Below, in pieces: positions 7,801 through 28,425 of a stretch of DNA of 64,000 bases. Origin of the DNA: Ostreococcus lucimarinus (lineage: Eukaryota). The notes below the pieces were generated by a model. It saw only the letters and a program-made list of their open reading frames with translations, did not search any database and was not told where the DNA came from. A program made the position numbers and the translations under genes. Location: the NCBI GenBank assembly GCA_000092065.1, contig CP000598.1. One strand, given 5' to 3'. Each line of letters begins with the position of its first letter. Positions within the stretch are counted from its first letter, which is position 1.

Positions 7801-9368
7801 TCAAGGACGTCGACGTCCGAGCGCAGGCGAACGCGTTAGACGCTCCGAATTCTGCGGCGGTACATATCGTGATGAAGGTCCACGCGTTCGATACAATCAT
7901 ATGTCGACTTGACGAACATTTGCTCGAATTCGCGGCGGCAGAACGTGTGAGTGAGCTCGCCGAGCTGGGTCGAAGACACGCTGAATTACGACATACGCGA
8001 CGTTGTGTCGCGATAGGTTTCGGCGACGCAGAGCTTCGAGCTACTTTCGATGCGCTAAGATCGTGCATCGAGGCACTCCGCCATGCCGTTGAGAACGACG
8101 ACTTCGAAGCTGTATTCACAACTTTCAATGGTGGGAAGGAGATCATTGATTCTCACTTACGATGGTGTCGGGATCAATGTGAATTGTTCAAGAGCGCCGA
8201 GGACGAGCACCCCGATTTCCTCGAGGACGAGCCTCCACTGACGACCGAGTTTTTCAAGGCGACAGTCAAGGTGATACAATCCCATGAAAAGCAACTGTCT
8301 AAATTTAAATCGGAATGTATTCGTAACTGGCCCCCGCTTTTCAAGAACTTTGGCCGCGTCAAGTACATACAAGGCTTTGCTGAGCAACTTCAGAATCAAC
8401 TCCATCTCGATCTCAATGAAAGCACGCCGGAGGAGGCCAAGGCTGTTTTCGATCAGGTGTTGGCCTTCACAGATGGCTTCGCGCTTTGGTGCGGCGATTT
8501 AGTGGCACAGGTCGAAGGCTCAGATGTCTTCATCTTGTTTGAGCCAATCGCCCGCGCGATGGTGGAAAGCTTGAAAGCCATCAGAGCAGACGCTGAGTCG
8601 CAAAGTGCACTCGCGAGGCAAGCATTGAGTACGATAGATTATGTGGTGACGCAACGGGCGTTGGCCGCAACGACGCGGTCGGGCTTGCAGACAGCACTCG
8701 CGGATGGTACGTCTGCGCTTGAAGACCAGCTCGCCGCAGAAATTGCAGACATGGACGCTGCGAAGATTTCTCGAGAGACTACTTTCGAGACCGAAAAGAT
8801 GCGCACCGAGGAAGCTTTGAATACATTAGAGCAAGAGTTGGACGGTAGGCGAGCGGTTTTAGAGGACGACATTCGATCGCAACAGGACACTATCGCGCGG
8901 CTACAAAACTTGAAACGGGAAGAGGCCGCGGCATCGAGCTCTATAAACCCGTTGAAATGGGAGCGTTTCAGTCGAAGCACTGAGCTCGCCGAAGCTGTAA
9001 GTGCACTCCGTATGAGCAAACAAAACTTGAAGAATGAAGAGCTTGCAAATGAGAAGGCCCGCGGGGATGCGCGTAAGGCGGTTCATTCGTTGGAACGGGG
9101 CCTGAAAAAGGACCTGGTCGAATGTGACGTCCGAGCAAAGAAAATCCGAGACGATGTGGCAAAGGAGCTGAAGAAACAAACTATGGATGCTCAGAGGAAG
9201 ACACCCGAAGATGCTAAAGCCCATAAGGCTAGTCTGGCTTCCAGGCGCGCGGTGTTCCAGCAACAACGCGCCGCCGCTAAACTCATCGCGAGCGAAAGTA
9301 GAGAAGCTACGCGAATTCAAGCACAGCTTGCATACTACATGCGAAATTTAAAGGCGCGCGAATCGTGA
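1839..9368 (+). CDS. Giant DUF285-repeat membrane protein. Signal peptide [13 protein letters not shown], then over 30 copies of the '[23 protein letters not shown]' unit (DUF285/PF03382-like), Cys-rich EGF-like linkers, several predicted TM helices (about aa 1430-1950 of the ORF), and a long alpha-helical/coiled-coil C-terminal domain.
   Basis: 7.8-kb uninterrupted ORF. The ORF-track start at 1545 is GC-rich, in-frame upstream sequence; the first ATG followed by a hydrophobic signal peptide is at 1839. The repeated N[WT]NTS.VT.M..MF motif is read directly. The C-terminal domain ([14 protein letters not shown]...[13 protein letters not shown]) is paralogous to ORF 20822..21832. Confidence 0.8.
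1902..3656 (+). repeat. Perfect intragenic tandem duplication. 822-bp unit at 1902-2723 is repeated at 2835-3656 (offset 933 bp = 311 codons), separated by a 111-bp Cys-rich linker.
   Basis: Minus-strand shadow ORFs 1845..2702 and 2802..3635 have identical 270-aa translations. The plus protein repeats '[22 protein letters not shown]...[14 protein letters not shown]' twice. Confidence 0.85.
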
Positions 9369-9685: not shown

Positions 9686-10018
9686 CTTAAGATTTCTTCG
9701 GAATGGAATCTCTGAACGCAAGGCGTGGATGTACATTAAACCATGAACGAGGCGGGCCACGGTTCGATTTTTTGGATTACAAGTGTAGGTCTACTTTTAC
9801 GTTTCGTGGACTCTGCTTGAGTCGGCCGATGTCACCATGTCAGTCAGGTGCTTCGAGTGCACTAGAGACGTGACCGCCCATACACAGGACGTCGAGCTCG
9901 GCGTGCCTGATTTCACGACTCGGCGACCATGGTTTGAAACCGAAATGACCATCGGCTTCAGGCCCAGGCGCGGCCGCAATGCTACTTTAAACTTAATATT
10001 TTTTTTTTGAAAAAAGAG
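9686..10018 (+). repeat. Dispersed repeat R1, copy a (about 335 bp). Begins 'cttaagatttcttcggaatggaatctctgaacgcaaggcgtggatgtacattaaaccatgaacg' and ends in a T10 tract plus 'gaaaaaagagta'.
   Basis: Near-identical copy at 16378-16712. The shared shadow ORF peptide MRPRLGLKPMVISVSNHGRRVVKSGTPSST appears in both. Confidence 0.75.
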
Positions 10019-10227
10019 TAGTAAGAGTAATAAAAATAAACTTTTTTTTGTTTGAGTTGGGGCACCCCAACATGATAAAACCGCACATCGCGGCGAGCCG
10101 CGCGACGACGATCACTTCGGTCACATTTCCAGTCAGTGATTCTCGTCGTGTGATTCATCGTGTTTGACGTCGACGTTGATGTACCACATGTAAGATCTCT
10201 TCAGAACCAATCGTGTGAGTGAAGTGT

Positions 10228-10725
10228 TCAGGCCAAGTCGCGTAACTCATCTAGCGTAAATTGATACTTGTCGAGACTGCGCTTTGAAGGCAGCGTGCCA
10301 CGCGCTCGAGCATTCTTGAGGCACGTCTTACGCAGTATTCTTTTCGCGTGCTGCTTGTAATAATTGAGTTGTCTGTAGTTACCATCGCCGCCGTCACGCT
10401 TCGGCGTATATTGGGCTCTGCTGTAGGCTTGACTCTCGTCCACGTTCTCGTGACACGCGTGTTTCTGGCTGCGTCCAGCAGCTCGGGAGTTGAATAAGCC
10501 GTCGCGCTTCTCTCTCATGTATGCACTTTTACGTTGATGGAGCTCTCCAGCTGGAATGTCCTTTTCGAGAACTCTCACGTCCGCGTCGCCAAACGTGAAG
10601 ATTGGATGTCGTGCGTATTTATGCGAGGCAAGGCGCGCTCTGAGCGAACCTGTCGTCGATCCGATGTACGTTTTGTCACATTTCGCATTATCGCTAAACA
10701 TTTCGTACACGCACCCCGTAGGCAT
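10228..10725 (-). CDS. GIY-YIG family endonuclease (165 aa).
   Basis: N-terminal 'GCVYEMF...(11 aa)...TYIGSTTGSLRARLASH' fits the GIY-(10-11)-YIG spacing with the conserved Arg. A downstream acidic/Asn region follows. Identical copy at 22162..22659. Confidence 0.7.
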   Translation of the reverse strand: MPTGCVYEMFSDNAKCDKTYIGSTTGSLRARLASHKYARHPIFTFGDADVRVLEKDIPAGELHQRKSAYMREKRDGLFNSRAAGRSQKHACHENVDESQAYSRAQYTPKRDGGDGNYRQLNYYKQHAKRILRKTCLKNARARGTLPSKRSLDKYQFTLDELRDLA

Positions 10726-11150
10726 TTGTCCTGGTTACCTATCCATCCCTAAGAAAATATTGTTGCCTCCTCCTGCGGTTTGCAGTCACATTCGAGAGAC
10801 CATAGGTACTCGTGTCGCTGCGTGGGGTGCAAGGTCCGGGGTGTAGATATCGAACCGCCTGATTTCACACCTGGACGTTCGTGATCCGACGAGACCTGAC
10901 GAAATGACGAACTTGTTTTGTCGTCCCCAAATTCGTCAGCCCGTCGTTCGGTCACACTTTGTGTGTACCAATGATGAAAATGACGAAATGTTAAAATATT
11001 TTAATGTTTATTTTTATTTTAGATCTATGACAAGCAACAGTGTAGACCTTTATGAAAACAGTTCGTCATTCGTCATTTCGTCAGGATCCAAACCATGGTC
11101 TTTTCGGTGTCTTGTTGAGTCTTCATATTGCAAATGTACGAATCACAAAA

Positions 11151-11726
11151 TTAGTATGAACACCAGACGACCGCCGGCGCGAGCTCCGTCTCCCCCGTGT
11201 ACCCATTGTTCTTCAGCCACTCGAAGCACCCGTCGCGGTCAATTTCCCAATAGACGCCCTTCTCGTCCCTACCTTGCCTCAGGTGGTCCTCTTCCATTGG
11301 GATCCTGTGGCCCTTTTCCTTCTTGAAGAAGTCCTTGAGCTTATTGCCGACCTTCGTCGCGCTATCTTGTCCACGCGCAGCCGCTGGCAACCACGTCTGG
11401 TATTCGATGAAGATGTCACTGTTGCGGATTTTATTTCCAACCCACTTCTCAGGGAATTCAACAGTGACGCAATGCTCAAACCATCGAGTGAACTTGGGCA
11501 TGCAGCCACGCTTCATTTCCGAATACGCGTCGGTCGTAGGTCTCGTGCGCTCCACATGATAACCGGTACGGAGAAGTTTATATTTATTAATTAAAGACTC
11601 GCGCGTGTTGGCGCTAAATGATTTTATTGCTGCCGAGAGACTCAAGTTTGGCCGTCGTTTGAGTCGCATCGATGGGTCGCGCCCGCCGATATAACGCCGG
11701 CGTTTCGGACACGATCTTGAAAACAA
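11151..11726 (-). CDS. Hypothetical protein (191 aa), part of the duplicated block.
   Basis: Compositionally normal ORF, identical (1 substitution) at 23093..23668. No family recognised. Confidence 0.45.
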   Translation of the reverse strand: MFSRSCPKRRRYIGGRDPSMRLKRRPNLSLSAAIKSFSANTRESLINKYKLLRTGYHVERTRPTTDAYSEMKRGCMPKFTRWFEHCVTVEFPEKWVGNKIRNSDIFIEYQTWLPAAARGQDSATKVGNKLKDFFKKEKGHRIPMEEDHLRQGRDEKGVYWEIDRDGCFEWLKNNGYTGETELAPAVVWCSY

Positions 11727-11746
11727 GCACTGGTTGACTTGATTGA

Positions 11747-14272
11747 TTAGGAAACCTTATCCGTGCCTTTTACGCTGAGCCCGGTCATGGACGGCTTCGT
11801 CGGCATGGTGAACGCGGTGTAGTCCGCCGCCGTGGGCACCGTGATGCTCGTGTCGTACGACATCCCGGAGCACGCCGACGCATCGGCGGGAGCAAGCATT
11901 TCGACACCACTTTCGAGTTTCAAGACGTACCGGTCGCCAGTCGATGGTTGTTTGAACGTGGTGCCATCGGGGATCAGGACATCCGGACGGCGATGGTAAC
12001 CATTGTTGTCGTCGCACTCCTCGTTGCCATACTGGTCGACCTCGGGCGCCGCGCGCGAACCAGTCATCGGATTGAAGCAAATGAACGGCGCGTCGCCCAA
12101 CCAACCGCCTTCGTAACGCACGTTGAGATTCACCCCGGAGTAGTCGGTACCGGATGGAGAGCGCAGCAACACGGCGTCCGTGGGTATCTTGCCTTGAAGC
12201 TGGAGAGGCGCATCCATGAACTTCTTTGACGCGGAGTCCGAAGGATCTTCGAGCCACGCCATGCCCTCCCAATTGCTTGAGCTCCACTCGTAGTGCACAT
12301 CCAATTTGTTGGGTTCCTCGCAAACGTCGGTAGTGGCGGTGCAACTCAAAGTGTCGAGGTTCGCAGGTGTAGCTTCGAAGAGAACCATATGAACTTCTCC
12401 CGAGTCAAAGAATGAGTTGGTTGGGTCCATTACGACTTCAGCGCCGAGGGTGCCGGAAACGTCTTCCTTCAACGAGCCGGTATCTTTGTCGAAGACGTAC
12501 TTTTTATAAGTGCTTCGAGCGTCGTTGTATCCGTTCGGCGAGCCGTAGAACTGGCTGTCGTGACTGCTCGCACTCGATAGCTTCGTCTGGTCGATACACC
12601 GCTCGCCGCACGTGAGTGCGAGGTGGCTGCTGAGCGACCCAGGGGGGACGGTTTGCGCGTCAGACACTTTGAAGTGCGTCAGGTTAAGCAAACTCGCAGA
12701 GCCTCGGCCGAAGATGCTTCCCCAGCAGCGTATGATTTGGTTGTCAATGTCAGCCATCGTGAGCGCACGCGGAGTCGTGATTGAGTTCGTGTTCAGCGAT
12801 CCACCGTTCCAAGTTCGCTTCGACGACAACACGAGTGCGTTCGCGTCGGAGTCATACCTGAACTTGACCTCAACTTCTGCAGCGTTAGTGTCATCCCAGA
12901 ACCAGCCTGTGATCGTCGCCCCTTGGTAGTCGCTTGCGCTTCGCACCGTCGCCGTGAACTTGTACAACACCCCGCGTGAGACTTTGAGCCTCTTGTTCAC
13001 GTTCAGTATCGGATCATCCCAATCGACAATTTCCTCTACTACGTTCCCGTCGGTGAACGCGGTTTGAGCGATAGTCTTCTCGGCGGTACTGAGCGCGGTG
13101 TCGGAAATGTAGTCGTAATCGGAAATGTAGAGATTGCCCGGATAGTGCAGATCAGCATTATACGTCTTGCCGTCGCTGCCTGTAGCCTGAAGATGCACGT
13201 AGCTTTGAAGGTTCACCTTCGCCCCGTTGCTGTCGTACGCGCCGTAGCGCTCACCGAAGAACGATCTGTTCTCGAGTTCATCGCAGAATGACTGCCCGTA
13301 CGCCTTCGTCTTGACGAGCGTAGCGGTAGTCACCAATTGACCCGCTTGTGTCGAACCATTATCAAAGTCGATGGTCTGGAAAGAGGCCTTCGTGATGTCG
13401 TTTTCTGCGCGCGATTTAGCACCCGCGGTGAATGAATTGCTGCCTCGTGTCACCTCTTCCCACCACGTGACCCCGGTCGCCGTGCAATCCGAATCCGCGT
13501 CGGTGGTTTCGCACTCGCGACGAACCACACCTTTGATGCGTTGGGACGCGGTCGAGCCAGTCGGCGATTGGTACGTAAAGGTAAAGTTTTTCACCAAGAT
13601 TTTGTCAGACTTGATGGCGACGTCATCGCGCTTGACGATCATTTCCGTGTCGATGTTCGGCATTTCTGGGGTATCGCTGAGGGCTACCCAGACGTTCGTC
13701 TTGAAATCACGGGTATCGCTCGCGTCGTCGATGTCTGGGCCCGTGGCGTTGACGACCCAACGGTACGTAACCTTACCCTTGATTCGGTCGCCGTCGCTGT
13801 TGTCACAGTGGAAAGGATCGATCTCAGCGATGTATGGGCCAGTGTTCAGGTTCGCCGTCCAGTTCACCGAGGCGACGTAGCAAAGAACCATGTTTGGTAT
13901 CTGGAAAATTTCGGTACTTACAGCGTCGACGAACGTCTCCGCCGGCGGCGCCGTGGCGTAGTCGGACGTCGAAGAGAACGAAGACACTTCGAGAGGCGTC
14001 ACCTCGACGAGCGAACGACCATCGATTCGAGACGAACCAGAAGACGTCGTCGAAACACCCTCTGACGGGATCATGGTGACTTTACGCGGCGTCAACGCCG
14101 CCTTGAGCGCGTTCGTCTTCGCCGCGCCCGACAGCCCGCTGACGGTGGTCGGGGTCGGGGCCGGGGCCGGGGTCGCGTCGTCATCCCTGAGCCCGATGCC
14201 GAGGCCGGTGCCAAGGGCGACCACCACGGCGGCGACACCAACGATCGCGATCGCAACGCCACGTCTCACCAT
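11747..14272 (-). CDS. Secreted or membrane-anchored hypothetical protein (841 aa). N-terminal hydrophobic anchor MVRRGVAIAIVGVAAVVVALGTGLGIG, PAPAPTPT linker, large Thr/Ser/Asp-rich beta-type ectodomain with scattered Cys.
   Basis: Long uninterrupted ORF. Duplicated at 23689..26220 (843 aa; extra PA in the linker). Stop is 21 bp upstream of the start of the 191-aa ORF. Confidence 0.6.
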   Translation of the reverse strand: MVRRGVAIAIVGVAAVVVALGTGLGIGLRDDDATPAPAPTPTTVSGLSGAAKTNALKAALTPRKVTMIPSEGVSTTSSGSSRIDGRSLVEVTPLEVSSFSSTSDYATAPPAETFVDAVSTEIFQIPNMVLCYVASVNWTANLNTGPYIAEIDPFHCDNSDGDRIKGKVTYRWVVNATGPDIDDASDTRDFKTNVWVALSDTPEMPNIDTEMIVKRDDVAIKSDKILVKNFTFTYQSPTGSTASQRIKGVVRRECETTDADSDCTATGVTWWEEVTRGSNSFTAGAKSRAENDITKASFQTIDFDNGSTQAGQLVTTATLVKTKAYGQSFCDELENRSFFGERYGAYDSNGAKVNLQSYVHLQATGSDGKTYNADLHYPGNLYISDYDYISDTALSTAEKTIAQTAFTDGNVVEEIVDWDDPILNVNKRLKVSRGVLYKFTATVRSASDYQGATITGWFWDDTNAAEVEVKFRYDSDANALVLSSKRTWNGGSLNTNSITTPRALTMADIDNQIIRCWGSIFGRGSASLLNLTHFKVSDAQTVPPGSLSSHLALTCGERCIDQTKLSSASSHDSQFYGSPNGYNDARSTYKKYVFDKDTGSLKEDVSGTLGAEVVMDPTNSFFDSGEVHMVLFEATPANLDTLSCTATTDVCEEPNKLDVHYEWSSSNWEGMAWLEDPSDSASKKFMDAPLQLQGKIPTDAVLLRSPSGTDYSGVNLNVRYEGGWLGDAPFICFNPMTGSRAAPEVDQYGNEECDDNNGYHRRPDVLIPDGTTFKQPSTGDRYVLKLESGVEMLAPADASACSGMSYDTSITVPTAADYTAFTMPTKPSMTGLSVKGTDKVS

Positions 14273-14404
14273 CGTCGCGCGTTGAAATGCGGCGACGACA
14301 AGTGGCGACGGTGACGCGATCTGCCCGCACGCAATTCAATTCCTTCGGGTCACCTTATCTTTTGGAGCCCCCGGAAACGCGACTGTTTACCAATACGATG
14401 GTTC

Positions 14405-14665
14405 CCGGGTATTGATTACTGGGCCTGTTGGCGCCCCGCGGGTGTGTGTGTGCCAGCCCGTAGGGTTTAAGGTTTAGGATCCGAAATATGGAGCCTCGCT
14501 ATTAAGCCGGGGATCCTCCGCGGGCACGCGCCCCCGCGGGCGTGTGTGTTTTCGCGGTCGGTCGGACGGGAAGCCTGTTGGCGCCCCACGGGTTTGTGTG
14601 TCGGTCCTTAGCGTTTGGGGTTTAGTATCGGACATACGGAGCCTCACTATTTAGCGGTATGACCA
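14405..14665. repeat. Tandem about 150-bp repeats containing degenerate TTTAGGG-type telomere-like units ('ggtttaggatc', 'gggtttaaggtttagg') and 'gcctgttggcgccccgcgggt'. Related array at 17465-17640.
   Basis: Two successive units can be aligned by eye (14420-14530 vs 14570-14660). Shares 'ggcgccccgcgggtttgtgtg..agggtttagg..atcggacatatggagcctcac' with 17520-17640. Confidence 0.65.
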
Positions 14666-14685
14666 CATATATTAATTGATTTATA

Positions 14686-14759
14686 CCATTCATCCCGCGC
14701 ATAAAATCGGGTAGATTACTGTACAGTAATCTACCCGACTTTATGCGCGGGATGAATGG
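14686..14759. repeat. 74-bp near-perfect palindrome/hairpin (37-bp arms, 1 mismatch) with core ATTACTGTACAGTAAT flanked by cccgcgc/gcgcggg.
   Basis: The reverse complement of 14686-14722 equals 14723-14759 except one base. A related hairpin is at 17833-17890. Confidence 0.8.
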
Positions 14760-14920
14760 CATAAATCCCATAGTATATGGGGACCGGACCGGCGGGACGT
14801 GTGATTTTTTACCGTAGGGGTCATGATTGGTCGTTCGGGGGTACTCGTATGAAATAATGAAACACCATACTTTTATTTACATTTTGGTTTATTAAAAAAA
14901 CCCGTACGTGCATTTACTAC

Positions 14921-15062
14921 AGAATTGACCACTTTTCGCGCGGGTTTCACCAGAAAGCTTCAAAAATCGTGCCTTTTCTAAAACTCAATTTTCGCTAGGG
15001 TTTAGCGCCCCCGGTTTTCCGAGGATGCGGGCAGATCTCGCCGTCGGCGCCACTCGTCGACG
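14921..15062 (+). promoter_or_regulatory. Conserved upstream module, copy 2, ending 4 bp before the ATG of 15066..16181.
   Basis: Alignment with copies 1, 3 and 4. Core 'ctagggtttagcgcccccggttttccgaggatgcgggcagatctcgccgtcggcgccactcgtcgacg'. Confidence 0.6.
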
Positions 15063-15065
15063 ACC

Positions 15066-16181
15066 ATGGCCTCCCCGTCGCTCGATGCCGTGCGTTGGAG
15101 CGAATACCGGGCGCTCATGCAAGCGTGGGAAGCGTTTAACCCACACAGGGAGCTCCTGCGTCGGTTTTTACAGAAGCAATCGCACACGGAGCAGTGCCCA
15201 CCCGGCGTCCCGTACGTACCAGATCTGCCGGAGCCGGAGTACTTCGCCGTGAAGAGACGAATCGAGGCCGGGGAAACCGTTCCATGTCCTGGATTCTTAC
15301 GCGAACGCGACAACCGGCGCAATCAATGCCGCTGCGGGGCTCCACTCAGAGTTGATGACACTGGCAATATCTCCTGCACTTCCAAAATTCCCCGTCATGA
15401 GAACTATGGTCCTGTACCTCGTTGCTGTTGCTGGGCCGAAGAAGAGCACGCTCGTAACCAACGACATGACATGCCGCCGTATATTTTAAGGCCGCCACCC
15501 ATAGTGTCCCCCCCTCAAGTACCACCGTCGTCTCAAGTGCTCTTGAGCTTTTTGGAGGGGGTCAGGCCAAGCATGAACGCCAACTACCTGCGATGCGTTC
15601 AAGACATAGACGAAGAGCTCGCTCGTCTGAATGAGCAGCTTGCGGACAACAGCATTTCAACGACGAGGCGTGAAGCGATTCAACAGCATATAGTGAGCGA
15701 ACGCTCCAAACTTGAGGCCAAAGACACACAGTTACAAGATTTTTTTAACACGACGACCGCACTGGCAGAATCCGTGCACACGTTCGAGCACAGAGTGGCA
15801 GAGAAATACCAGAAAGCTGTGGATGCATACATTAAAGCGCAACTGGATGAAGTGGTCGTACCTCCGGATAGTAGAGGGAATCCAAAGTTTAAGGACTCAG
15901 TCGATGGCATCGACAGAGAGTTGGCCAAGTTAGAATCAGAAAATGGAGGCATCTCCAACGACAGCGCTCGCGCTCGCGTCGCCTCCAAACGTAAGAGCGT
16001 GGAAGAGTGTGAATCAGAGCACAAGCGCCTCAAAACCACTTCGGTTGAGTACAACTTGTCTATTTTGAAAGGGAGTTTGGAAAAAGACAAATCTATGTCT
16101 GCTGAAGACAAAAGACGCTGGGAATGCGTCATAAACGCCGTCGGGTTGTTACGAGCAAACGATGCACCAAGAACGCCGTAG
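15066..16181 (+). CDS. Coiled-coil protein (371 aa); paralog of 18177..19220.
   Basis: Shared segment 'LNEQLADNSISTTRREAIQQHIVSERSKLEAKDTQLQ' vs 'LEAQLQDENISETRRSVIPQHIEDTRAKLKEQDNSLN'. Heptad-rich, Glu/Lys/Arg-rich. Confidence 0.6.
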   Translation: MASPSLDAVRWSEYRALMQAWEAFNPHRELLRRFLQKQSHTEQCPPGVPYVPDLPEPEYFAVKRRIEAGETVPCPGFLRERDNRRNQCRCGAPLRVDDTGNISCTSKIPRHENYGPVPRCCCWAEEEHARNQRHDMPPYILRPPPIVSPPQVPPSSQVLLSFLEGVRPSMNANYLRCVQDIDEELARLNEQLADNSISTTRREAIQQHIVSERSKLEAKDTQLQDFFNTTTALAESVHTFEHRVAEKYQKAVDAYIKAQLDEVVVPPDSRGNPKFKDSVDGIDRELAKLESENGGISNDSARARVASKRKSVEECESEHKRLKTTSVEYNLSILKGSLEKDKSMSAEDKRRWECVINAVGLLRANDAPRTP

Positions 16182-16377
16182 CAACAGTATGGGCAAACAG
16201 TTAGGCGTTCTCCATGGCCTCCATTCGCGCGACCAGAGCGTTGACGCGCTCTTCGAGTTCGTCGATGCGGCGTTGTTTAGCGTCGTTCGCGCTCTCTACA
16301 TCGGCGCGACATAGAATAACGATAATCTATATCTGCTATATCTGCTTAATATTCTGCTTAAGATTTCGGCACCCTCG

Positions 16378-16712
16378 CTTAAGATCTCTTCAGAATGGAA
16401 TCTCTGAATGCAAGGCGTGGATGTACATTAAACCATGAACGGACCACGGTTCGATTTTTTTTATTACAAGTGTAGGTCTACTTTTACGTTTGGTGGACTC
16501 CGCTTGAGTCGGCCGATGTCACCGTGTCAGGTGTTCAGAGTGCACTAGAGACGTGACCGCCGATACACAGGGCGTCGAGCTCGGCGTGCCTGATTTCACG
16601 ACTCGGCGACCATGATTTGAAACCGAAATGACCATCGGCTTCAGGCCCAGGCGCGGCCGCAATGCTACTTTAAACTTAATATTTTTTTTTTGAAAAAAGA
16701 GTACTATAGTAC
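16378..16712 (+). repeat. Dispersed repeat R1, copy b. Preceded (16205-16375) by a fragment of a coiled-coil gene 3' end and the 'atagaataacgata' element also seen at 19255-19270.
   Basis: Direct alignment with 9686-10018. The minus-strand frame at 16205-16290 reads ...DAKQRRIDELEERVNALVARMEAMENA* . Confidence 0.7.
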
Positions 16713-16756
16713 TTTTGGTGTTTAAACGTGTTCGTGATATGATTGATAGTCCGTGA

Positions 16757-17407
16757 TTATACGTCGACTTTTGCGGGCGCCTGTTGGACGTAGATGACTT
16801 GCGGCTGCTGCGGCCGCGTCGCCACGGCGGTGGCGATGAGCTGGTCGCGTCGGTACGCGAAGCACCCGCACCGCCCACAGTAGCAGCACGAGACGATGAG
16901 CAACGTCAGGCCGACGACGGTACCAATGATGATGCCCGCGATCGCGCCACCGTCTGGTTTACAGCAGTCGTCACCGCAGCATACGTTTTGGCCGCCCGTG
17001 TACATACTGCACCATTTACCGCCTTTTTTGTGGAGTGGTGGGCACCCGTGGGCGCCGTCCCAGCATTTGGCTCCATTGGCAACTTCCGTGGCGATTTCTG
17101 TTCCACACGAGGTGTAACTGGAAATTGTGTCCGTACACTTGGACGGGCACGATTGGTCGATCGAGTTGCCATACGGTGGCGGTCCCGCGCTGCACCCGAA
17201 ACAGTCTGAGCACACACCGACCGTCACGCCGTTGTAGGTCCCGGTGTTGTAACAGAACTCTTCGCTCGATGCCCAGGGGTTCGCGCTCGCGTAGCCGCTC
17301 GAAACAACGCAGTCGGTGTGGGTTGAACACGTGTCGCCCGCGTCCGCGCGCGCGGTGTGCGCGACGGCGAGGCCGAAAACGAACGGTACGAGGAGGTTCT
17401 TAAACAT
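16757..17407 (-). CDS. Cys-rich type I membrane protein (about 216 aa). Signal peptide MFKNLLVPFVFGLAVAHTARA, Cys/Gly-rich ectodomain, TM helix AIAGIIIGTVVGLTLLIVSCCYC, short Gln/Pro-rich tail.
   Basis: ORF read on the minus strand. Start moved from the track's 17464 to the ATG at 17407, which precedes the hydrophobic signal. Confidence 0.55.
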   Translation of the reverse strand: MFKNLLVPFVFGLAVAHTARADAGDTCSTHTDCVVSSGYASANPWASSEEFCYNTGTYNGVTVGVCSDCFGCSAGPPPYGNSIDQSCPSKCTDTISSYTSCGTEIATEVANGAKCWDGAHGCPPLHKKGGKWCSMYTGGQNVCCGDDCCKPDGGAIAGIIIGTVVGLTLLIVSCCYCGRCGCFAYRRDQLIATAVATRPQQPQVIYVQQAPAKVDV

Positions 17408-17464
17408 CTTTGGCGTGGGTTTATCTCGCAAAAGGATTTCAGCGAGGCTTGAGGTGCGCCGCAA

Positions 17465-17640
17465 AGTGAGGCCCGGAGATCCGGGGATCCTCCGCAGCCC
17501 CGCGGGCGTGTGCCTGGCGTGTGCCCTTCGCGGTCGGTCGGACGAGGGGCCCGTTGGCGCCCCGCGGGTTTGTGTGCCAGCCCCAGGGTTTAGGGGTTAG
17601 GATCGGACATATGGAACCTCACTAATTAGCCGCATGACCT
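17465..17640. repeat. Telomere-like repeat unit related to 14405-14665.
   Basis: Shared blocks 'gatcctccgc..ccccgcgggcgtgtg', 'tcgcggtcggtcggacg', 'gttggcgccccgcgggtttgtgtgccagcc', 'agggtttaggggttaggatcggacatatgga'. Confidence 0.65.
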
Positions 17641-17832
17641 CATACATTAAGTTATTTATATCTAGTCATCGCGCGAAATGGCGTGGGTAAATTACCGTAC
17701 TAGGGTTTCCGTAAATAAAATACGTACCGAAAATAATGAATTAATTTACACGGGCGTGCCACGACGTCGTCGCACGCGCTCGTGAAAATTTGGTTGACGG
17801 CTTGGATTCGAGATTTTGGGGAGGTAAAATTC

Positions 17833-17890
17833 GGCCAAATCCCGCGCATATATTACTGTACAGTAATCAAAGCGCGGGATGTGGCCAAAG
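17833..17890. repeat. Imperfect hairpin with the same ATTACTGTACAGTAAT core.
   Basis: 'ggccaaatcccgcgcatatattactgtacagtaatcaaagcgcgggatgtggcc' folds back on itself. Confidence 0.6.
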
Positions 17891-18007
17891 TCTTTGGGTC
17901 ACAGCCCCTCACTTTGGGGGCTGCAGTGACGGGATGTGGGAATTTTACCGTATGGGTCGTGACTCGTCGTTGGGGGTACTACTATGAAATCCCATAATTC
18001 TATTGTA

Positions 18008-18176
18008 CATAGGGTTTAGAAATTAGGGTTTAGACGTCAAAAATCGCTCGGGTTCCATCAGAAACGTGTCAAAAACGGGCCTTTTCTGAAACTCGATTTT
18101 TGCTAGGGTTTAGCGCCCCCGGTTTTCCGAGGATGCGGGCAGAGCTCGCCGTCGGAGCCACTCGTCGCCGCACACG
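18008..18176 (+). promoter_or_regulatory. Conserved upstream module, copy 3 (extended form with 'tagggtttagaaattagggtttagac' head), ending at the ATG of 18177..19220.
   Basis: Alignment with copies 1, 2 and 4. Confidence 0.6.
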
Positions 18177-19220
18177 ATGACCGATTCAGTCGCGCACGCC
18201 TCACCGACATGGAGAACGTACTCATTAAACCCGTCGCTGCAACCGGACTGGATGAACGGCACGGCGGAGGTAGAGGCGGTCAAAACAGCGGAGGATGATC
18301 TCGAGCGCTCGTACAAGAACAAGCCGTTCTTCAAGGACGCAAGCTACGAGGCATTCGCCAGACAACGAGACGAGTATGACAAACCGACGCCCGACGGCCT
18401 CGAGGAGTTCAAGCGCATCTTACGGTCGAATTATCTTCGCACCGTAGAGCGCATCGATAAAAATATCCAAGTTCTGGAAGCCCAGCTACAAGACGAGAAT
18501 ATCTCTGAAACGCGACGGTCGGTTATCCCGCAGCACATCGAGGACACTCGTGCGAAATTAAAAGAGCAAGACAATTCATTGAACGCGCTGTGCGCCGATG
18601 TGGATGCGGTTATCGCAGATTTGAAAGGCTTGCCCGATAAAATTGCCGACATTAAAGAGCGCGCCTCTGAACAACTTCAGCGACACAAAAGAAAAAGGAC
18701 TAATGCATCTTTGGAACGCAACCTCGAGGAGTTGAGCGATGCGTTGCGCAGCTACGAGGCGAAAAAAGAACAGGAGAGGCTCACCCTTTGTGAACACCAA
18801 ATTCGCCAACAGAATCTGCCATTGTCCCAGTATGTTCGCTACTCAGGGGGAGGAGTTATCGACGTTGTTCATCCTGTGGGTGTCATCGGCTGCGATGGTA
18901 GTAACCTCAGCGTTGATGGTCGTGGTGGTCGTGGTGGTCGTGGTGGTCGTGGTGGTCGTGGTGATCGTGTTCTTTCGGTTAATCGTCAACGTTACTTTGA
19001 AGTGCCACAATGGCGGCCTGAATGGGGACCTGAGAAGCAATTTTGTGCGTGCAAGAGCTTCCAAGAATGGTACAAAGTCGACGCCGGAGACCTTCTTTAC
19101 AGCGCGCTTCGTGGCGTAGAGGGCGCGCTAAAGGCGCTCAGTGGTTCGGGAGATGACACCTCTTCGCTTCGACGGCGCTTGGGCGATGCCAATTTGGACG
19201 AGGCAAGCACAGGGAGTTAA
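18177..19220 (+). CDS. Coiled-coil protein (347 aa), paralog of 15066..16181, with an internal (GRGG)n tract encoded by a (ggtcgtggt)n microsatellite at about 18918-18965.
   Basis: Paralogy as above. The microsatellite is read directly. Confidence 0.6.
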   Translation: MTDSVAHASPTWRTYSLNPSLQPDWMNGTAEVEAVKTAEDDLERSYKNKPFFKDASYEAFARQRDEYDKPTPDGLEEFKRILRSNYLRTVERIDKNIQVLEAQLQDENISETRRSVIPQHIEDTRAKLKEQDNSLNALCADVDAVIADLKGLPDKIADIKERASEQLQRHKRKRTNASLERNLEELSDALRSYEAKKEQERLTLCEHQIRQQNLPLSQYVRYSGGGVIDVVHPVGVIGCDGSNLSVDGRGGRGGRGGRGGRGDRVLSVNRQRYFEVPQWRPEWGPEKQFCACKSFQEWYKVDAGDLLYSALRGVEGALKALSGSGDDTSSLRRRLGDANLDEASTGS

Positions 19221-19757: not shown

Positions 19758-19930
19758 CTAGGGTTTAGAAATTAGGGTTTAGACATCAAAAATCGCCGAG
19801 GTTCCATCAGAAAGTTGTCAAAAACGTGGCTTTTCTAAAACTCGATTTTTACTAGGGTTTAGCGACCTCCGGTTTTTCGGCGGAGGAATTGCGTGCGGGC
19901 AGATCTCGTCGTTGTCGCCACTCGTCGACG
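19758..19930 (+). promoter_or_regulatory. Conserved upstream module, copy 4, ending about 17 bp before the ATG (19947) of the ARM-repeat gene.
   Basis: Alignment with copies 1-3. Confidence 0.6.
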
Positions 19931-19946
19931 CGGCGATGCTCTCAAC

Positions 19947-21832
19947 ATGGCAAAGGTGAAGATAATGCTAATATTGTCGATGGTGTTGATACTGCGCATG
20001 CCGAGCGCACTCGCAGGCGCACTCACACACGCACTCCTCCGTGTGGGTGGTCCACGTGTAAGGCAAGCTGTCGAAAAAGGGATGAAACAAGGCATTATGG
20101 ATTCGTTTCCAGGAGGCGTCCAGGACCTCCTCGCATACTTGCACCGCCACAGAGAGGACGAAATCAAACAGGAGTTTGGGTGCATGGCGCTCATGATCAT
20201 GTGCCGGGAAAACACTGAGAACAGACGCATCGCCGGAGAGCAGGGCGCGATCCAGGCCGTCGTGAACGCCTTGAACCGCCACAGAGAGAACAAGGAAGTG
20301 CAGAGGGACGGACACATGGCGCTCGTGATCATGTGCGAGGACAACACCGAGAACAGACGCATCGCCGGAGAGCAGGGCGCGATCCAGGCCGTCGTGGACG
20401 CCTTGAACCGCCACAGAGGGAACAGGGAAGTGCAGAGGGACGGACAACTGGCGCTCGCGATCATGTGCAAGGACAACACTGAGAACAGACGCATCGCCGG
20501 AGAGCAGGGCGCGATCCAGACCGTCGTGGACGCCTTGAACCGCCACAGAGGGAACAGGGAAGTGCAGAGGGACGGACAACTGGCGCTCGCGATCATGTGC
20601 AAGGACAACACTGAGAACAGACGCATCGCCGGAGAGCAGGGCGCGATCCAGACCGTCGTGGACGCCTTGAACCGCCACAGAGGGAACAAGGAAGTCCAGG
20701 CGAACGGGCACATGGCGCTCGCGAGCATGTGCATTAACAACACTGAGAACAGACGCATCGTAGACGCGTATGGGCAAACAGTTAGTTATTCTCCACAGCC
20801 TCCATTCGCGCGACCAGAGCGTTGAAGGACAGCGGGCGCAGTGATGATGCGCAAATAAACGCACTGTACGCGATTGCAAACGAGATGGCGCACGCTGTGA
20901 ACATGATCTCGATTCAAGGTGTCGCTGAAGGCCCGGGCGTTGAAGAACGAGTAAAACACACACAAGATTTCCTACAGCAACTTTTGTCGGACGTCGACAT
21001 CAAACTTGAGATCGAAGAAAAGCAAAACGCCGAGGCTCTGCGTGTGGTATTGCGAGTGCACGCGTATGGTCGTGCCATGAAAATTATCGAGGATCACATG
21101 CTAGAATATGCGCGCGCTGAACAAGTGGAGGAGCTGGCCGTGCTCGGACAAGAATCTGCGGCACTGTTAGAAGAACAAAACCTCCTTTCCATGGGTTTTG
21201 GCGTCAAGGAGCTGAATATGTCGATACTGGCAATCGACGCGGAGCATTTCACTGTGCACCTAGAGAAAGCTACTTCCCTGGACGAAGTCGGCAGTGCTGT
21301 GGCCATTCTCAACGCCGTCAATTCCATTGCAGTCCGTCATCTCGAGTGGAGAGATGCGAGCGTTGCAACTTTTAGCCACCTTGAAACCGAAGAGTCCATT
21401 GGTATTGAAGTCAAAATCAACAGGGACGTACTATATTCTGCTGCGATGCTTCTGAAAGATCACGAATCCCAGCTGAACCAAGAACTGGCGAGGCGCGCGC
21501 GCGAATGGAAGCTTCTGTTTAAGAATTTTGGAAAAGTGAAATTCAACCAGACGCTTGAAGAAATGGTTCAGGTGGAGCTCACCTCGCCTGAAGGCGCGGA
21601 CGCTGATTTAACACGCCGTGCTAAAAAATTTGTGGATTGGTGCGTGGAATCTTCACAGCAGCTGAGCCGAGGGGAGTTTAACCAGCGTCTTCCTGGGATT
21701 ACGGAAACGGCATATATCAGCCTAAAATCCCTCGCACAGAAGTCTGCCAGTTCGCTCGTTAAGATCGCACAAAAAACAGCTGCATCGAGGCGTAGCAAAA
21801 CAAAGACGTCAATATTCGGGTTTGCGCGCTAA
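19947..21832 (+). CDS. Armadillo-type repeat protein. Five or more tandem 40-aa units 'NRRIAGEQGAIQAVVDALNRHRGNREVQRDGQLALAIMCKDNTE', then a C-terminal domain paralogous to the C-terminus of the DUF285 giant. The reading frame breaks near 20770-20825, at a junction with a dispersed repeat; possibly a pseudogene or unresolved splice.
   Basis: Track ORFs 19893..20825 and 20822..21832 are in frames +1 apart. No GT..AG interval of plausible size restores the frame (checked candidates are 39, 31 and 26 nt). The junction sequence 'tatgggcaaacagttag..tctcca..gcctccattcgcgcgaccagagcgttga' recurs at 16185-16250. Confidence 0.45.
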
Positions 21833-22161
21833 ATCCGCCAACCGAACGCCAGAATTGTTATGTTACGCTCGATGATAACATGGTTGGGTTGGGGCAAATG
21901 CCCACAAATCAGCGTCAGGCGAAGGAAGACAGGTGCGTCTGCAAATTCCAAATTCTCGGCAGAACAAGTTCGTCGACTGGAAGAGCTCGGCCGGTTTGGA
22001 GACAAACCCGCCATATTGGAAGAGCACTTCGCTGCCTGAGGGTACAGAAGATGTAGCTAATCAGAAGCGTGCGACCGTTAAGACCTTGGGGATTCGACTC
22101 GCTTAAGATTTCGGCACCCTCGCTTAAGATTTCTCCAGAACGAATCGTGTGAGTGAAGTGG

Positions 22162-22659
22162 TCAAGCCAAGCCACGCAACTCATCTACCGTAAATTGATA
22201 CTTGTCGAGACTGCGCTTCGAAGGCAGCGTGCCGCGCGCTCGAGCATTCTTGAGGCACGTCTTACGCAGTATTCTTTTCGCTTGCTGCTTGTAATAACTG
22301 AGTTGTCTGTAGTTACCATCGCCGCCGACCCGCTTCGGCGTATATTGAGCTCTGCTGTAGGCCGGACTCCCGTCCACGTTCTCGTGGCACGCGTGTTTCT
22401 GGCTGCGTCCAGCAACTCGGGAGTTGAATAAGCCGTCGCGCTTCTCTCTCATGTAGGCACTTTTACGTTGATGGAGCTCTCCAGCTGGAATGTCCTTTTC
22501 GAGAACTCTCACGTCCGCGTCGCCAAACTTGAAGATTGGATGTCGTGCGTATTTATGCGAGGCAAGGCGCGCTCTGAGCGAACCTGTCGTCGATCCGATG
22601 TACGTCTTGTTACATTTCGCATTATCGCTAAACATTTCGTACACGCATCCCGACGGCAT
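22162..22659 (-). CDS. GIY-YIG family endonuclease, second copy.
   Basis: Near-identical to 10228..10725, with a few substitutions (for example D/N, T/K). Confidence 0.7.
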   Translation of the reverse strand: MPSGCVYEMFSDNAKCNKTYIGSTTGSLRARLASHKYARHPIFKFGDADVRVLEKDIPAGELHQRKSAYMREKRDGLFNSRVAGRSQKHACHENVDGSPAYSRAQYTPKRVGGDGNYRQLSYYKQQAKRILRKTCLKNARARGTLPSKRSLDKYQFTVDELRGLA

Positions 22660-23092
22660 TTGTCCTGATTACCTATCCATCCCTAAGAAAATATTGTTGC
22701 CAAAAGTGCTCCTCCTGTGGTTTGCAGTCACATTCGAGAGACCATAGGTACTCGTGTCGCTGCGTGGGGTGCAAGGTCCGGGGTGTAGATATCGAACCGC
22801 CTGATTTCACACCTGGACGTTCGTGATCCGACGAGACCTGACGAAATGACGAACTTGTTTTGTCGTCCCCAAATTCGTCAGCCCGTCGTTCGGTCACACT
22901 TTGTGTGTACCAATGATGAAAATGACGAAATGTTAAAATATTTTAATGTTTATTTTTATTTTAGATCTATGACAAGCAACAGTGTAGACCTTTATGAAAA
23001 CAGTTCGTCATTCGTCATTTCGTCAGGATCCAAACCATGGTCTTTTCGGTGTCTTGTTGAGTCTTCATATTGCAAATGTACGAATCACAAAA

Positions 23093-23668
23093 TTAGTATG
23101 AACACCAGACGACCGCCGGCGCGAGCTCCGTCTCCCCCGTGTACCCATTGTTCTTCAGCCACTCGAAGCACCCGTCGCGGTCAATTTCCCAATAGACGCC
23201 CTTCTCGTCCCTACCTTGCCTCAGGTGGTCCTCTTCCATTGGGATCCTGTGGCCCTTTTCCTTCTTGAAGAAGTCCTTGAGCTTATTGCCGACCTTCGTC
23301 GCGCTATCTTGGCCACGCGCAGCCGCTGGCAACCACGCCTGGTATTCGATGAAGATGTCACTGTTGCGGATTTTATTTCCAACCCACTTCTCAGGGAATT
23401 CAACAGTGACGCAATGCTCAAACCATCGAGTGAACTTGGGCATGCATCCACGCTTCATTTCCGAATACGCGTCGGTCGTAGGTCTCGTGCGCTCCACATG
23501 ATAACCGGTACGGAGAAGTTTATATTTATTAATTAAAGACTCGCGCGTGTTGGCGCTAAATGATTTTATTGCTGCCGAGAGACTCAAGTTTGGCCGTCGT
23601 TTGAGTCGCATCGATGGGTCGCGCCCGCCGATATAACGCCGGCGTTTCGGACACGATCTTGAAAACAA
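23093..23668 (-). CDS. Hypothetical protein (191 aa), second copy.
   Basis: Identical to 11151..11726 except T/A at one residue. Confidence 0.45.
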   Translation of the reverse strand: MFSRSCPKRRRYIGGRDPSMRLKRRPNLSLSAAIKSFSANTRESLINKYKLLRTGYHVERTRPTTDAYSEMKRGCMPKFTRWFEHCVTVEFPEKWVGNKIRNSDIFIEYQAWLPAAARGQDSATKVGNKLKDFFKKEKGHRIPMEEDHLRQGRDEKGVYWEIDRDGCFEWLKNNGYTGETELAPAVVWCSY

Positions 23669-23688
23669 GCACTGGTTGACTTGATTGA

Positions 23689-26220: not shown

Positions 26221-27354
26221 CGTCGCGCGTTGAAATGCGGCGACGACAAGTGGCGACGGTGACGCGATCTGCCCGCACGCAATTCAATTCCTTCGGGTCA
26301 CCTTATCTTTTGGAGCCCCGGAGATGCGACTGTTTACCAATACGATGGTTCCCTTTTTTCGGTCGCGAAAGCGCGCGGTCGCCGGGTCAACCAACACCTT
26401 CATCTCCGGGGGGGATCGGAGATTGTTTTTTACGGTCGCGCGCGCGGTCGCCGCGGACGCCCCCGCCCTCGTCGACGCCGCGCTGACTGTCGCGCGCTGA
26501 CTGACACGCGCTGACCGACGCGCGCGCGATCGAACGCCGCGAGTGGGGAAAGGCGAACGCGCGACGTCGTCGCGCGCGCCCCCGCGCGTCCCGGACCGAA
26601 CCGCGCGTCGTCGTCGTCGCCGTCGCCGTCGCGCGCGTACGCTTCGGACCGCGAAAATCGTTTTTCGTCGCGGGGGGACTGCGGTGCGGGTCGTCTCACA
26701 CTTCGGGACGCCGACGATGGTGTCGTCCGGCGACGCCGACGTCGACGACGCGGTCGAACGACGCCATCGGCGCGGTCGCGGTCGCGCCGTTCGCGATCTT
26801 CTGCCGTCGTCCTCGGCGGCGCGCGCGAACACCGTCCCGCCGTTTGAAGCAACCGGTCGAGGCGCGCTCCCGAGGTGGTTTTGCAAGAGCTGTCGGAAAG
26901 CGCTCGACGTGTTTCGTGATTTCGACGGGGAGCTGAAGACGTGTCGACTGTGTTTGCGCGCGCGCAAGAAAGACGCGAAACGCAAACGCGCGCTACGGCG
27001 GGCGGACGCGAAAAGGTCGGGCGACGGCGACGGTAAAAAAGGCGCGGCTTCGTAGAGAAGCCGAACGCAGGGAACGACGACGAGTCGCGGATGCGCGCGA
27101 AACGATCGATCTTTGATTCGACACGCCTTCGGTATAGTAGTGTGTTTTGCTCTGTAGCCTCGCGTGTTGTAACTACCGTTGTACATTTACATCAATGCGT
27201 CGTCGCGTTCGCGGCGATTTTACGTCGTCGTTCGTTCGCGACGCTTCGTTGGACATGGCGCTTCGACACAGAAGAATCCGACGCGCGCACAGTCCGTGGT
27301 GTCGCGCGCACGTCATCGCACACGTCTCATTTCTTATTTCTCCGCTCCAACTCG

Positions 27355-28344: not shown

Positions 28345-28425
28345 ACGCGTCGCGGTTTCCCGCGCCGCGCGTCGCGCGTCGTCGGGTGCTGCGGGGACCG
28401 ACCCCGCGGTTTTGTGCGAAATGAA
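28345..28425. repeat. About 85-bp GC-rich dispersed repeat, copy 2 (see 797-880).
   Basis: Direct alignment. Confidence 0.7.

Follow-up and report, generated by a model that had tools for sequence, protein, structure and literature searches.

A low-copy family of spacer-less palindromes with junctions at the tip in DNA of the small-outlier-chromosome type from Ostreococcus lucimarinus and wild relatives

Introduction

The DNA analyzed here is a stretch of 64 kb (hereafter the window; contig CP000598.1), which is part of chromosome 18 in Ostreococcus lucimarinus CCE9901, its small outlier chromosome (SOC). Two divergent intergenic regions of the window, 14273-15065 and 17408-18176, carry arms of an inverted repeat, and each of these loci is a partly degraded representative of a foldback palindrome family that has few copies and no spacer. 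Judged by sequence, this family is found in SOC-type DNA of low GC content in O. lucimarinus and wild relatives; a description of it was not found in the searchable literature, where it is apparently undescribed. The tip of the palindrome, at which the two arms meet, is a junction, and three arms are each joined there to two to four alternative partners.

The assignment to chromosome 18 is based on protein comparison, in which four open reading frames (ORFs) of the window are identical to O. lucimarinus CCE9901 proteins; the 371-aa ORF between the two regions is XP_001422295 and the 841-aa ORF preceding them (11747-14272) is XP_001422333. The window has a GC content of 50-55% apart from one block of 60-65%, its genes are dense and apparently without introns, and Pfam scans identify glycosyltransferases, nucleotide-sugar enzymes, transporters, FkbM methyltransferases and a C5-DNA methyltransferase. 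This composition and gene content fit the SOC assignment. The SOC is hypervariable and linked to prasinovirus resistance, and its variation arises via translocations, duplications and large deletions (PMC5498103, PMC13390643, bioRxiv 10.64898/2026.07.10.737489). Non-homologous end joining is suspected behind this variation and a cis-acting sequence at the junctions was not identified (PMC5498103, PMC13390643). After viral challenge the chromosome rearranges within days, and up to 2026 a cis-acting junction sequence is unreported (PMC5498103, PMC5082852, PMC13390643, bioRxiv 10.64898/2026.07.10.737489).

Two hairpins at the inner ends of repeat arms

A preliminary description of the region had reported two arrays of TTTAGGG-type units (14405-14665 and 17465-17640), each followed by a hairpin on a shared 16-bp palindrome, by AT-rich DNA and by an upstream module, and had compared the combination with transposon termini or a recombination hotspot. 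The hairpins are borne out by the present analysis. The 16-bp palindrome ATTACTGTACAGTAAT has exactly two copies in the window (14715-14730 and 17852-17867), both with CCCGCGC/GCGCGGG flanks; about 0.02 matches are expected by chance, and two were reached in 0 of 100 shuffles. In the first hairpin the 37-nt arms (14686-14722 and 14723-14759) differ at one position, and pairing continues outward until the arms measure 60 nt (14663-14782; 53 of 60 positions matching, spacer 0); the second one is present at 17830-17889 in a weaker form with 25 matches in 30. Folded as DNA, both are more stable than background (-50.9 kcal/mol, z = -14.1, and -20.9 kcal/mol, z = -6.4, respectively). Each hairpin is followed by AT-rich DNA and a common upstream module, the two copies of which (14936-15062 and 18044-18170) are 89% identical.

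The arrays did not hold up. Neither Tandem Repeats Finder nor a phase-free telomere scan reports an array at 14405-14665 or 17465-17640, where telomere-like runs make up 34 of 261 nt and 18 of 176 nt (10-13%), corresponding to about two telomere-type heptamers per repeat unit. Self-comparison revealed that 14421-14509, 14573-14724 and 17547-17700 are copies of one unit, the first interval being two tandem arm copies (one of them truncated) and the second one a single arm copy. The hairpin, which had been taken for a separate item behind the array, is the inner end of that same arm. What had been called a telomere-like tract amounts to two to three heptamers, a motif that is also located 71-92 nt upstream of neighbouring start codons in the manner of a telo-box. 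Moreover, the two loci are paralogous tandem units with the order unit, module, promoter module and paralogous ORF (371 and 347 aa), and the window alone would therefore not reveal a dispersed family.

Anatomy and census of the family

Members outside the window were collected by one scan of marine metagenomes with a pattern located inside the unit. It returned 24 loci, 19 of which are true; the chance pattern hits L017, L022, L025, L026 and L035 (20-44% GC) were discarded, and further contigs were added via exact-protein look-ups of window proteins. Together these loci and contigs hold approximately 38 distinct arm copies, approximately 17 distinct palindrome centres and at least 12 unrelated outer-flank contexts. 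The preliminary description would have been refuted by a hairpin restricted to these two sites with no conserved flanks, and this is not what the wider search gave. In all true loci the GC content beside the element is 46-58% and thus SOC-like.

The arm comprises about 175 nt. Its blocks follow each other from outside to inside in the order a-b-c-d-e-f-g, then comes the mirror image, and this order is constant across copies. Block a is GGTCGGTCGGACG, block b is TTGGCGCCCCGCGGG or TTGGCGCCCCGCGGGT followed by (GT)n, block c consists of two to three TTTAGGG-type heptamers, and blocks d, e, f and g are ATGGAGCCTCACTATTTAGC, CATATATTAAT, CATCCCGCG and ATTACNGTAC, the last one being the tip. The a-b segment (GGTCGGTCGGACG...TTGGCGCCCCGCGGG(GT)n) is a sub-repeat present in one to three copies, and one arm type, although well conserved, lacks the heptamers of block c. 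The outer half of the arm has 59-72% GC, the inner half 39-41% GC, ending in the GC clamp and the tip. The two arms normally meet tip to tip with a spacer of 0. L029 1019-1352 is the element in the best state of preservation; its two arms, each about 165 nt long, form a palindrome of about 330 bp without spacer, and the fold of 366 nt has an energy of -146.5 kcal/mol (z = -20.8). In a metagenome haplotype of the first locus (L006) two units stand head to head and make one long palindrome. At the outer side, homology starts sharply a few nucleotides before TTGGCGCC (block b) in at least six unrelated flank types.

A hidden Markov model (HMM) of the arm was built from 19 arms and run on the 64-kb window. 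It matches 14404-14509 in part (HMM positions 7-110, E = 1e-27), 14550-14724 and 17527-17700 in full and, in reverse, 14784-14721 in part, with a weak hit to the short second hairpin; the copies in the window are confined to the two loci (Table 1).

As a separate observation, a variant palindrome (L014 9251-9420, L016 and L033) is centred on the AT-rich block ATTAATATAT and not on the ATTACNGTAC tip, and the unit therefore holds a second, nested axis.

Mirror covariation of the arms and the conserved core

Ten palindromes anchored at their centres were aligned for covariation. At 16 of 33 mirrored positions changes occurred on both sides, and 79.8% of the cells are pairing; shuffled alignments give 71.6%, with none of 500 as high as the real one, and sliding the partner column lowers the value to 34-43%. 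Such a pattern is in line with homogenisation between arms, or with arms that arose by inverted duplication, in either case punctuated by exchange of partners. The core GGGTnnATTACnGTACnGTAATnnACCC consists of 11-nt inverted arms around a 6-nt centre. Within it ATTAC, GT and AC are invariant in all ten palindromes, and the adjacent mirror pairs are mismatched in five to six of the ten; these mismatches either stabilise the palindromes or give the site polarity.

Alternative partners at the palindrome tip

The partners switch at GTAC or within 5-9 nt of it, and the majority of them are other arms. The first case is the IG2-type arm (17527-17700). Its GTAC is continued without a gap by the partner X (TAGGGTTTCCG...) in the window, and in ten independent contigs (L036-L045) by a 20-nt stub of another arm type, with which it forms a hybrid mini-palindrome. 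The block 16705/16748-17700 is 98.8-99.9% identical to the window in these contigs (99.5-99.9% in most of them) and ends exactly at 17700. In L036-L040 it is located among core genes, with WD40, Rad4, rhodanese and amino-acid kinase genes upstream and, in L036, the core genes ZW10, SHMT and Arf downstream. The second case is the IG1-type arm, the full form of window 14422-14509 beside the 841-aa gene, which is followed by an inverted arm in L006, L007, L012 and L027 and by the same X in L011. Alignment A2 displays these arms and partners as a 2 x 2 combination, in which all switches lie directly after GTAC. Since the IG1- and IG2-type arms differ throughout the last 30 nt, the exchange point is confined to a few bases.

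The third arm has a constant outer flank and four partners, i.e., the IG1-type arm (L006 group), a second arm type (L031), an arm type with duplicated tip (L034) and a block of high-GC core genes (L019/L032). This block starts 5 nt past the tip and encodes a mitochondrial carrier, ABCF, a HECT ligase, an MIF4G/MA3 protein and MRP-S28. Across the family, centres with matched arms are found in palindrome 1 of the window (43/45), L006 (39/45) and L012b (39/45), centres with unlike arms, i.e., hybrids, in L029, L015, L021, L024, L036 and L018, and duplicated or shifted tips in L014, L031, L034, L030 and L018. Identical arms with different tip-joined partners in natural haplotypes speak in favor of the recombination hotspot that had been one option of the preliminary description.

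An assembly artefact is unlikely for these tip junctions because identity between arms from separate loci does not exceed about 10 nt beside the tip, which is far below an assembler k-mer, because the alternative haplotypes carry private substitutions and because one arrangement recurs in ten contigs from several samples. Simple homologous deletion between the window arms was rejected as origin of L011, which carries a third arm type up to the tip.

Proposed breakage and rejoining at the tip

The reading that we favor, with a probability of roughly 0.55, is that these palindromes are prone to form cruciforms and would be extruded or folded, cut at the tip and rejoined in the manner of the human palindromic AT-rich repeats (PATRRs). 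The palindrome would extrude as a cruciform, or single strands would fold as hairpins; a cut would be set at or beside the tip, and the ends would be rejoined. The new partner would in most cases be the tip of a second palindrome of the family, and now and then an end that is not related. As with PATRRs, the consequence would be a shuffling of arms, of gene cassettes and of entire blocks of chromosomes. By this route the palindrome family could contribute to SOC hypervariability.

The human elements PATRR11, 22, 17 and 8 measure 190-600 bp and are almost perfect palindromes that lack a spacer and are AT-rich in the middle; they break at the symmetry centre, form hybrids by palindrome-to-palindrome exchange and show allelic variation of arm symmetry (PMC4940405, PMC1851657). 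The size of about 200-600 bp without spacer is reached by L029, and the window copy has 120 bp. An AT-rich centre is present as well (inner 39-41% GC), with the short GC clamp beside the core as an added feature, and the junctions lie at the symmetry centre, mostly palindrome to palindrome. There are also differences. PATRRs share little sequence, whereas the Ostreococcus members are homologous with a conserved core of 16-28 bp and a GC clamp; their outer arms are GC-rich with telomere-type heptamers; and they are located in divergent promoter regions of a very compact genome, with cruciforms that are predicted.

The window's own segmental duplication supports the favored reading in that it ends at the edge of the repeat cluster. 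According to self-comparison it comprises 4.2 kb (about 10170-14406 = 22125-26353) with 98-99% identity, preceded by weaker similarity from about 9450 and 21900; its end segment (14273-14406 = 26221-26353) is 97.8% identical. The two copies part after GGTTCCC, at the outer edge of the repeat cluster, and copy B passes directly at 26354 into a block of 64% GC. The position 14405, at which the preliminary description had let its feature begin, coincides with this duplication end at 14406, inside a short arm remnant.

Several points weigh against breakage at the tip. Breakage itself is deduced from the positions of the junctions, and hybrid arms could also arise via homologous exchange or gene conversion within the conserved core of 22-28 bp. 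When one tip is joined to another, the join is mostly precise to the nucleotide, in contrast to the small loss of bases that is usual at PATRR junctions, and a site-specific enzyme therefore stays in play, at a low probability. Furthermore, breakpoints also occur off the tips, at 14509, 14963, 16254 and 16705/16748, the 14406 boundary is the outer edge of an arm remnant and not a tip, and several truncated arms end elsewhere, e.g., at the telomere-like block. Because these other breakpoints do not involve the palindrome, the tip is one junction type among several. Finally, the comparison contigs are of metagenomic origin with mixed strains and possibly species, the loci were retrieved by a pattern inside the arm, which introduces an ascertainment bias, and the IG1-type arm joined to X is known from the single contig L011 with 26 nt of X.

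The arms as probable promoters

The elements fill divergent intergenic regions, and very probably the arms therefore double as promoters of the flanking genes, as far as this can be read from the sequence. It is unlikely that they are primarily a bidirectional promoter or regulatory cassette, in which telo-boxes would be bound by telomere-repeat Myb factors with the GC-rich block and the palindromic core acting alongside, and which would have spread passively with segmental duplications, the junction pattern being a by-product of recombination between dispersed repeats. The position of the elements is in line with such a cassette. In L029 the palindrome and its sub-repeats take up 951-1352 of a gap at 944-1426, between a 53-aa cysteine-rich ORF and the start codon at 1427 inside a listed 346-aa ORF, and an ORF that reads outward begins at a distance of 46-200 nt from the outer end in approximately 15 of the 21 distinct arms, in a noisy test. 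Moreover, an element is kept at the orthologous position in a relative that is 11% diverged (L018). The heptamer motif CTAGGGTTTAGCG is located 71-92 nt upstream of the ATG in three of four neighbours that share the promoter module (14995, 18103 and 19852), the fourth module carrying the same motif as CTAGGGTTTAGC at 1293, and 12 of the 14 telomere-like runs of the window are in such intergenic promoter regions.

In land plants telo-boxes are promoter-proximal and recruit Polycomb repressive complex 2 (PRC2) through telomere-repeat-binding (TRB) factors (PMC2576244, PMC8788455); O. lucimarinus has TRFL Myb proteins (XP_001421395, XP_001416857; PMC3400083) and PRC2 components (PMC2576244, PMC8788455, PMC3400083). 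The heptamer motif matches the plant telo-box AAACCCTA, and in the neighbouring modules it is promoter-proximal at 71-92 nt upstream of the ATG (PMC2576244, PMC8788455). In the arm, by contrast, the motif is duplicated two to three times, stands about 150-190 nt from the ATG and lies inside a palindrome, and a telo-box function in Ostreococcus is putative. The promoter activity of the arms is deduced from their position, the one arm type without heptamer block is well conserved nevertheless, and some partial arms are located 3' of genes (L024). Promoter function leaves the spacer-less palindromic form and the switching of tip partners unexplained, and it is compatible with breakage and rejoining at the tip, not exclusive. 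A role as terminator was rejected because the elements are placed between divergent and not between convergent genes.

Two side observations concern these promoter regions. Unrelated genes share the promoter or 5' module (14936-15062, 18044-18170, 19800-19930 and 1231-1304), the 3' part of which is also present in inverted orientation before the 841-aa genes (14293-14329 and 26241-26277). Furthermore, the 53-aa ORF of L029 (780-943; also in L015) appears metallothionein-like when read by eye, and it starts 8 nt from the outermost sub-repeat.

A possible dedicated enzyme at the core

We also regard it as doubtful that a dedicated recombinase, transposase or hairpin-resolving enzyme acts on the core GGGTnnATTACnGTACnGTAATnnACCC and performs exact exchange at its centre, so that gene cassettes would move between core sites. 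The exactness of the junctions is what such an enzyme would leave: at least ten hybrid palindromes retain the 16-mer at its exact length, the switches lie directly after GTAC, and the invariant ATTAC, GT and AC next to neighbours mismatched in five to six of ten palindromes could be read as polarity of a site. The segment 14723-17700, bounded by inverted tips, is absent in the L011 arrangement. The core also resembles lox, FRT and dif sites with its short inverted halves like binding arms around a 6-nt centre, with central exchange and with hybrid sites. It differs from these sites and from replicated hairpin-telomere junctions in that the enzyme is putative and some partners lack a half-site, leaving a resemblance only. 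Indeed, X and the core-gene block have no recognisable half-site, the duplicated or shifted tips (+5 nt, +9 nt, tandem tips) resemble imprecise repair, cassettes also move via breakpoints without core, and a recombinase or transposase was not found among the window or locus ORFs tested.

An extended form of this reading, which we consider rather unlikely, is a dedicated exchange site at which the enzyme would swap whatever lies past the tip and thereby bring cassettes and blocks of standard chromosomes into and out of the SOC. The (GT)n-TTTAGGG seeds are aimed at the tip, and unrepaired ends could be healed there as new telomeres. If true, the exchange site would be an integron-like or programmed-breakage-like diversity generator of a eukaryote, serving an antiviral chromosome.

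Transposon, telomere and other origins as less likely alternatives

A non-autonomous foldback or MITE-type (miniature inverted-repeat transposable element) DNA transposon with the outer ends as termini is improbable. The long terminal inverted repeats do make up the whole element, as in foldback elements and MITEs, in which inverted repeats are most or all of the element; sub-repeats, multi-copy occurrence, non-coding nature and association with rearrangements are likewise shared, the outer part carrying its tandem sub-repeat in one to three copies. Homology also starts sharply before TTGGCGCC in the unrelated flank types. The nearest published mention, an element of 1,001 bp in O. mediterraneus whose inverted repeats are 225 bp long, was read as a non-autonomous transposon (PMC13390643); compared with the family by description only, it looks unrelated. 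In contrast to transposons of this type, the Ostreococcus family has no central loop and varies at the axis, its variability being concentrated at the centre and not at the outer ends. Target-site duplications are absent where the outer ends of L024, L014, L031 and L029 meet their flanks, and neither a precise empty site nor a transposase was found in the window or the 45 loci. Pfam scans of 40 ORFs of the window and the loci gave no mobile-element enzyme; the matches were sugar-modification enzymes, transporters, methyltransferases and core genes. Regarding the proposed transposon termini, the foldback-end part thus stands, as multi-copy spacer-less inverted repeats are present, and the Helitron part and the classical-termini part are not supported.

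It is very improbable that the arms are relics of chromosome ends, i.e., a fossil subtelomere with a short telomere, or telomere seeds, the palindromes marking fusions or breaks healed by telomerase. The G-rich strand of the heptamers runs 5' to 3' toward the tip in all arms, with (GT)n before it. Because the heptamers of both arms face the tip, each of the two fragments made by a break at the axis would keep sequence that resembles a telomere seed. Immediately past the tip, the partner X begins with TAGGGTTT. The chromosome ends of O. lucimarinus have in common Type-I/Type-II telomere-adjacent sequences with signs of deletion and repair (PMC8287924), and O. mediterraneus SOCs lose large terminal segments and yet assemble telomere to telomere (PMC13390643). 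Against this stand the number and the arrangement of the repeats: each arm has two to three degenerate heptamers (13-21 nt), none of the loci has two perfect in-phase repeats, and about 200 nt of non-telomeric palindrome separate the heptamer blocks, unlike head-to-head fusion sites. In one arm type the heptamer block is dispensable. An interstitial telomere derived from fusion was rejected likewise, as there is no canonical repeat array and the heptamers are too few and too far apart.

Rolling-circle ends of the Helitron type with a subterminal hairpin have a negligible probability, the presence of a GC-clamped hairpin being the only point in their favor: what the hairpin forms is no subterminal stem but the axis of a palindrome that reaches about 330 bp, the copies do not agree in the sequence 3' of their hairpins, neither a CTRR nor another conserved motif follows them directly, and the window and locus ORFs scanned include no Rep/helicase. 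As there is no 3' motif, target-site duplication, transposase or Rep/helicase, the Helitron origin is removed and the classical MITE or foldback transposon is weakened.

A structured RNA gene, a short interspersed nuclear element (SINE) or a tRNA-derived repeat was ruled out by Rfam and ARAGORN, since Rfam gave no hit at gathering score and at E <= 1 merely two sub-threshold matches to microRNA hairpins, and ARAGORN gave no tRNA. Mamiellales are not known to have canonical Dicer/Argonaute, and a small-RNA hairpin is hence unlikely. A viral origin was rejected as well, with 0 hits in IMG/VR for four patterns (hairpin with clamp, arm interior, outer arm and core).

Significance for SOC variability

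The family belongs with recombinogenic palindromes and foldback repeats and offers a concrete cis-element as a testable candidate for SOC hypervariability. A searchable palindrome family with its tips at natural junctions would make the origin of this hypervariability directly testable, and two of the tip junctions join SOC-type DNA to core-gene blocks. Recombinogenic palindromes that form one homologous family with many members are rare outside mammals, and this family would moreover add such a case, placed in promoters of a minimal eukaryotic genome. If the arms were only a promoter cassette or a dead foldback transposon, the family would be a modest annotation item.

Features of the two loci and of the surrounding window

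Table 1. Features of the two palindromic loci, with positions in the 64-kb window.
Feature	Position	Strand	Remarks
Short hairpin-arm remnant TCCCGGGTATTGATTACTG	14403..14421	+	Cut 1 nt short of centre and joined to next arm; 84% complementary to 17861-17879
Truncated arm: TTGGCGCCCCGCGGG, (GT)n, TAGGGTTTAAGGTTTAGG, ATGGAGCCTCGCTATTAAGC	14422..14509	+	Ends after last block
Outer extension/sub-repeat of next arm, GGGGATCCTCCGC...GCCCCCGCGGGCGTGTGTG	14510..14549	+	Homologous to 17481-17526
Full arm to tip (...CATCCCGCGCATAAAATCGGGTAGATTACTGT), left arm of palindrome 1	14550..14722	+	HMM 3-177, E = 2e-50
Partial opposite arm (62 nt), right arm of palindrome 1	14723..14784	-	HMM 114-177
Module GGGAYGTG..TTTTACCGTAKGGGTCRTGAYTSGTCGTT	14793..14855	+	CCAAT on minus strand; 82.5% to 17930-17990
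Promoter / 5' module with telo-box CTAGGGTTTAGCG (14995-15007)	14936..15062	+	Telo-box 71 nt upstream of ATG 15066
371-aa ORF XP_001422295, no Pfam domain	15066..16181	+	Paralogue of 347-aa ORF at 18177
216-aa cysteine-rich membrane-protein ORF	16757..17407	-	Reads away from second arm
Outer extension/sub-repeat of second full arm	17481..17526	+	Self-comparison
Second full arm, ends exactly at tip (...GGGTAAATTACCGTAC)	17527..17700	+	HMM 4-177, E = 2e-51; inverted partner absent here
Unique partner X, joined to tip, begins TAGGGTTTCCGTAAAT	17701..17829	+	Minor palindrome inside, 17745-17786
Mini-palindrome 2, short arm type (GC clamp + core)	17830..17889	.	16-bp core 17852-17867; 25/30 matches
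Second copy of window-specific module	17930..17990	+	Self-comparison
Two telo-boxes (18009-18034), then promoter / 5' module (18044-18170)	18009..18170	+	Telo-box 18103-18115, 74 nt upstream of ATG 18177

The tandem units are 76.5% identical from the outer extension to the tip (14507-14724 and 17481-17700). Haplotypes L006, L012 and L027 have a full arm in place of the truncated one at 14422-14509, and the short arm type of mini-palindrome 2 is also present in L012, L027 and L021. The module at 14793-14855 and 17930-17990 is absent from all family loci outside the window.

Further rearrangements of the region are visible in the metagenome contigs. The cassette 14963-16254, which comprises the promoter module and the 371-aa ORF, corresponds to L001 1653-2944 with 99.8% identity. 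There it is placed between TatD-DNase and bestrophin genes in a metagenome contig of 64 kb that also has starch synthase and importin genes, and its right breakpoint, 16254, is common to L001-L004. SOC genes therefore behave as movable cassettes of promoter plus ORF. Furthermore, the haplotypes L037 (10640-11237), L041, L043 and L045 follow the window downstream of the 216-aa gene as far as 16705 and then diverge, and L037, L041 and L045 match window 1181-799 from there on in reverse with 98-99% identity, a sequence that is 15 kb away in the reference. This arrangement is a further rearrangement of the same region.

The 4.2-kb duplication carries three ORFs (165, 191 and 841/843 aa), and a Pfam domain is present in none of them. 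Copy A of the duplication contains an element of about 500 bp (9700-10197), bordered by the 16-nt direct repeat TAAGATYTCTTCRGAA; copy B is without it and has a single site near 22115-22135. The element has a partial copy at 16393-16705, is also found in L014 (8143-8594) and has no Rfam match; it has the look of an insertion, either one with target duplication or one mediated by repeats. The block of 60-65% GC (26354-37300), which sits within a low-GC chromosome, carries genes for a BCCT betaine/choline transporter and for a protein of 880 aa in which C5-DNA methylase, mono-CXXC and Tudor domains are combined.

Among the remaining genes, the 2607-aa ORF at 1545-9368 is composed of 25-aa PARCEL/DUF285 repeats, with 75-nt DNA repeats at 2081-5195. 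It probably corresponds to XP_001422294, the accession adjacent to that of the 371-aa ORF; XP_001422294 is a PARCEL-repeat protein, and chromosome 18 is listed with one PARCEL-containing ORF (PMC2996958). The ORF 19893-20825 contains 4.4 copies of a 132-nt (44-aa) armadillo-like repeat (20183-20760), and a 9-nt repeat encoding (GRG)n lies inside the 347-aa ORF (18917-18969).

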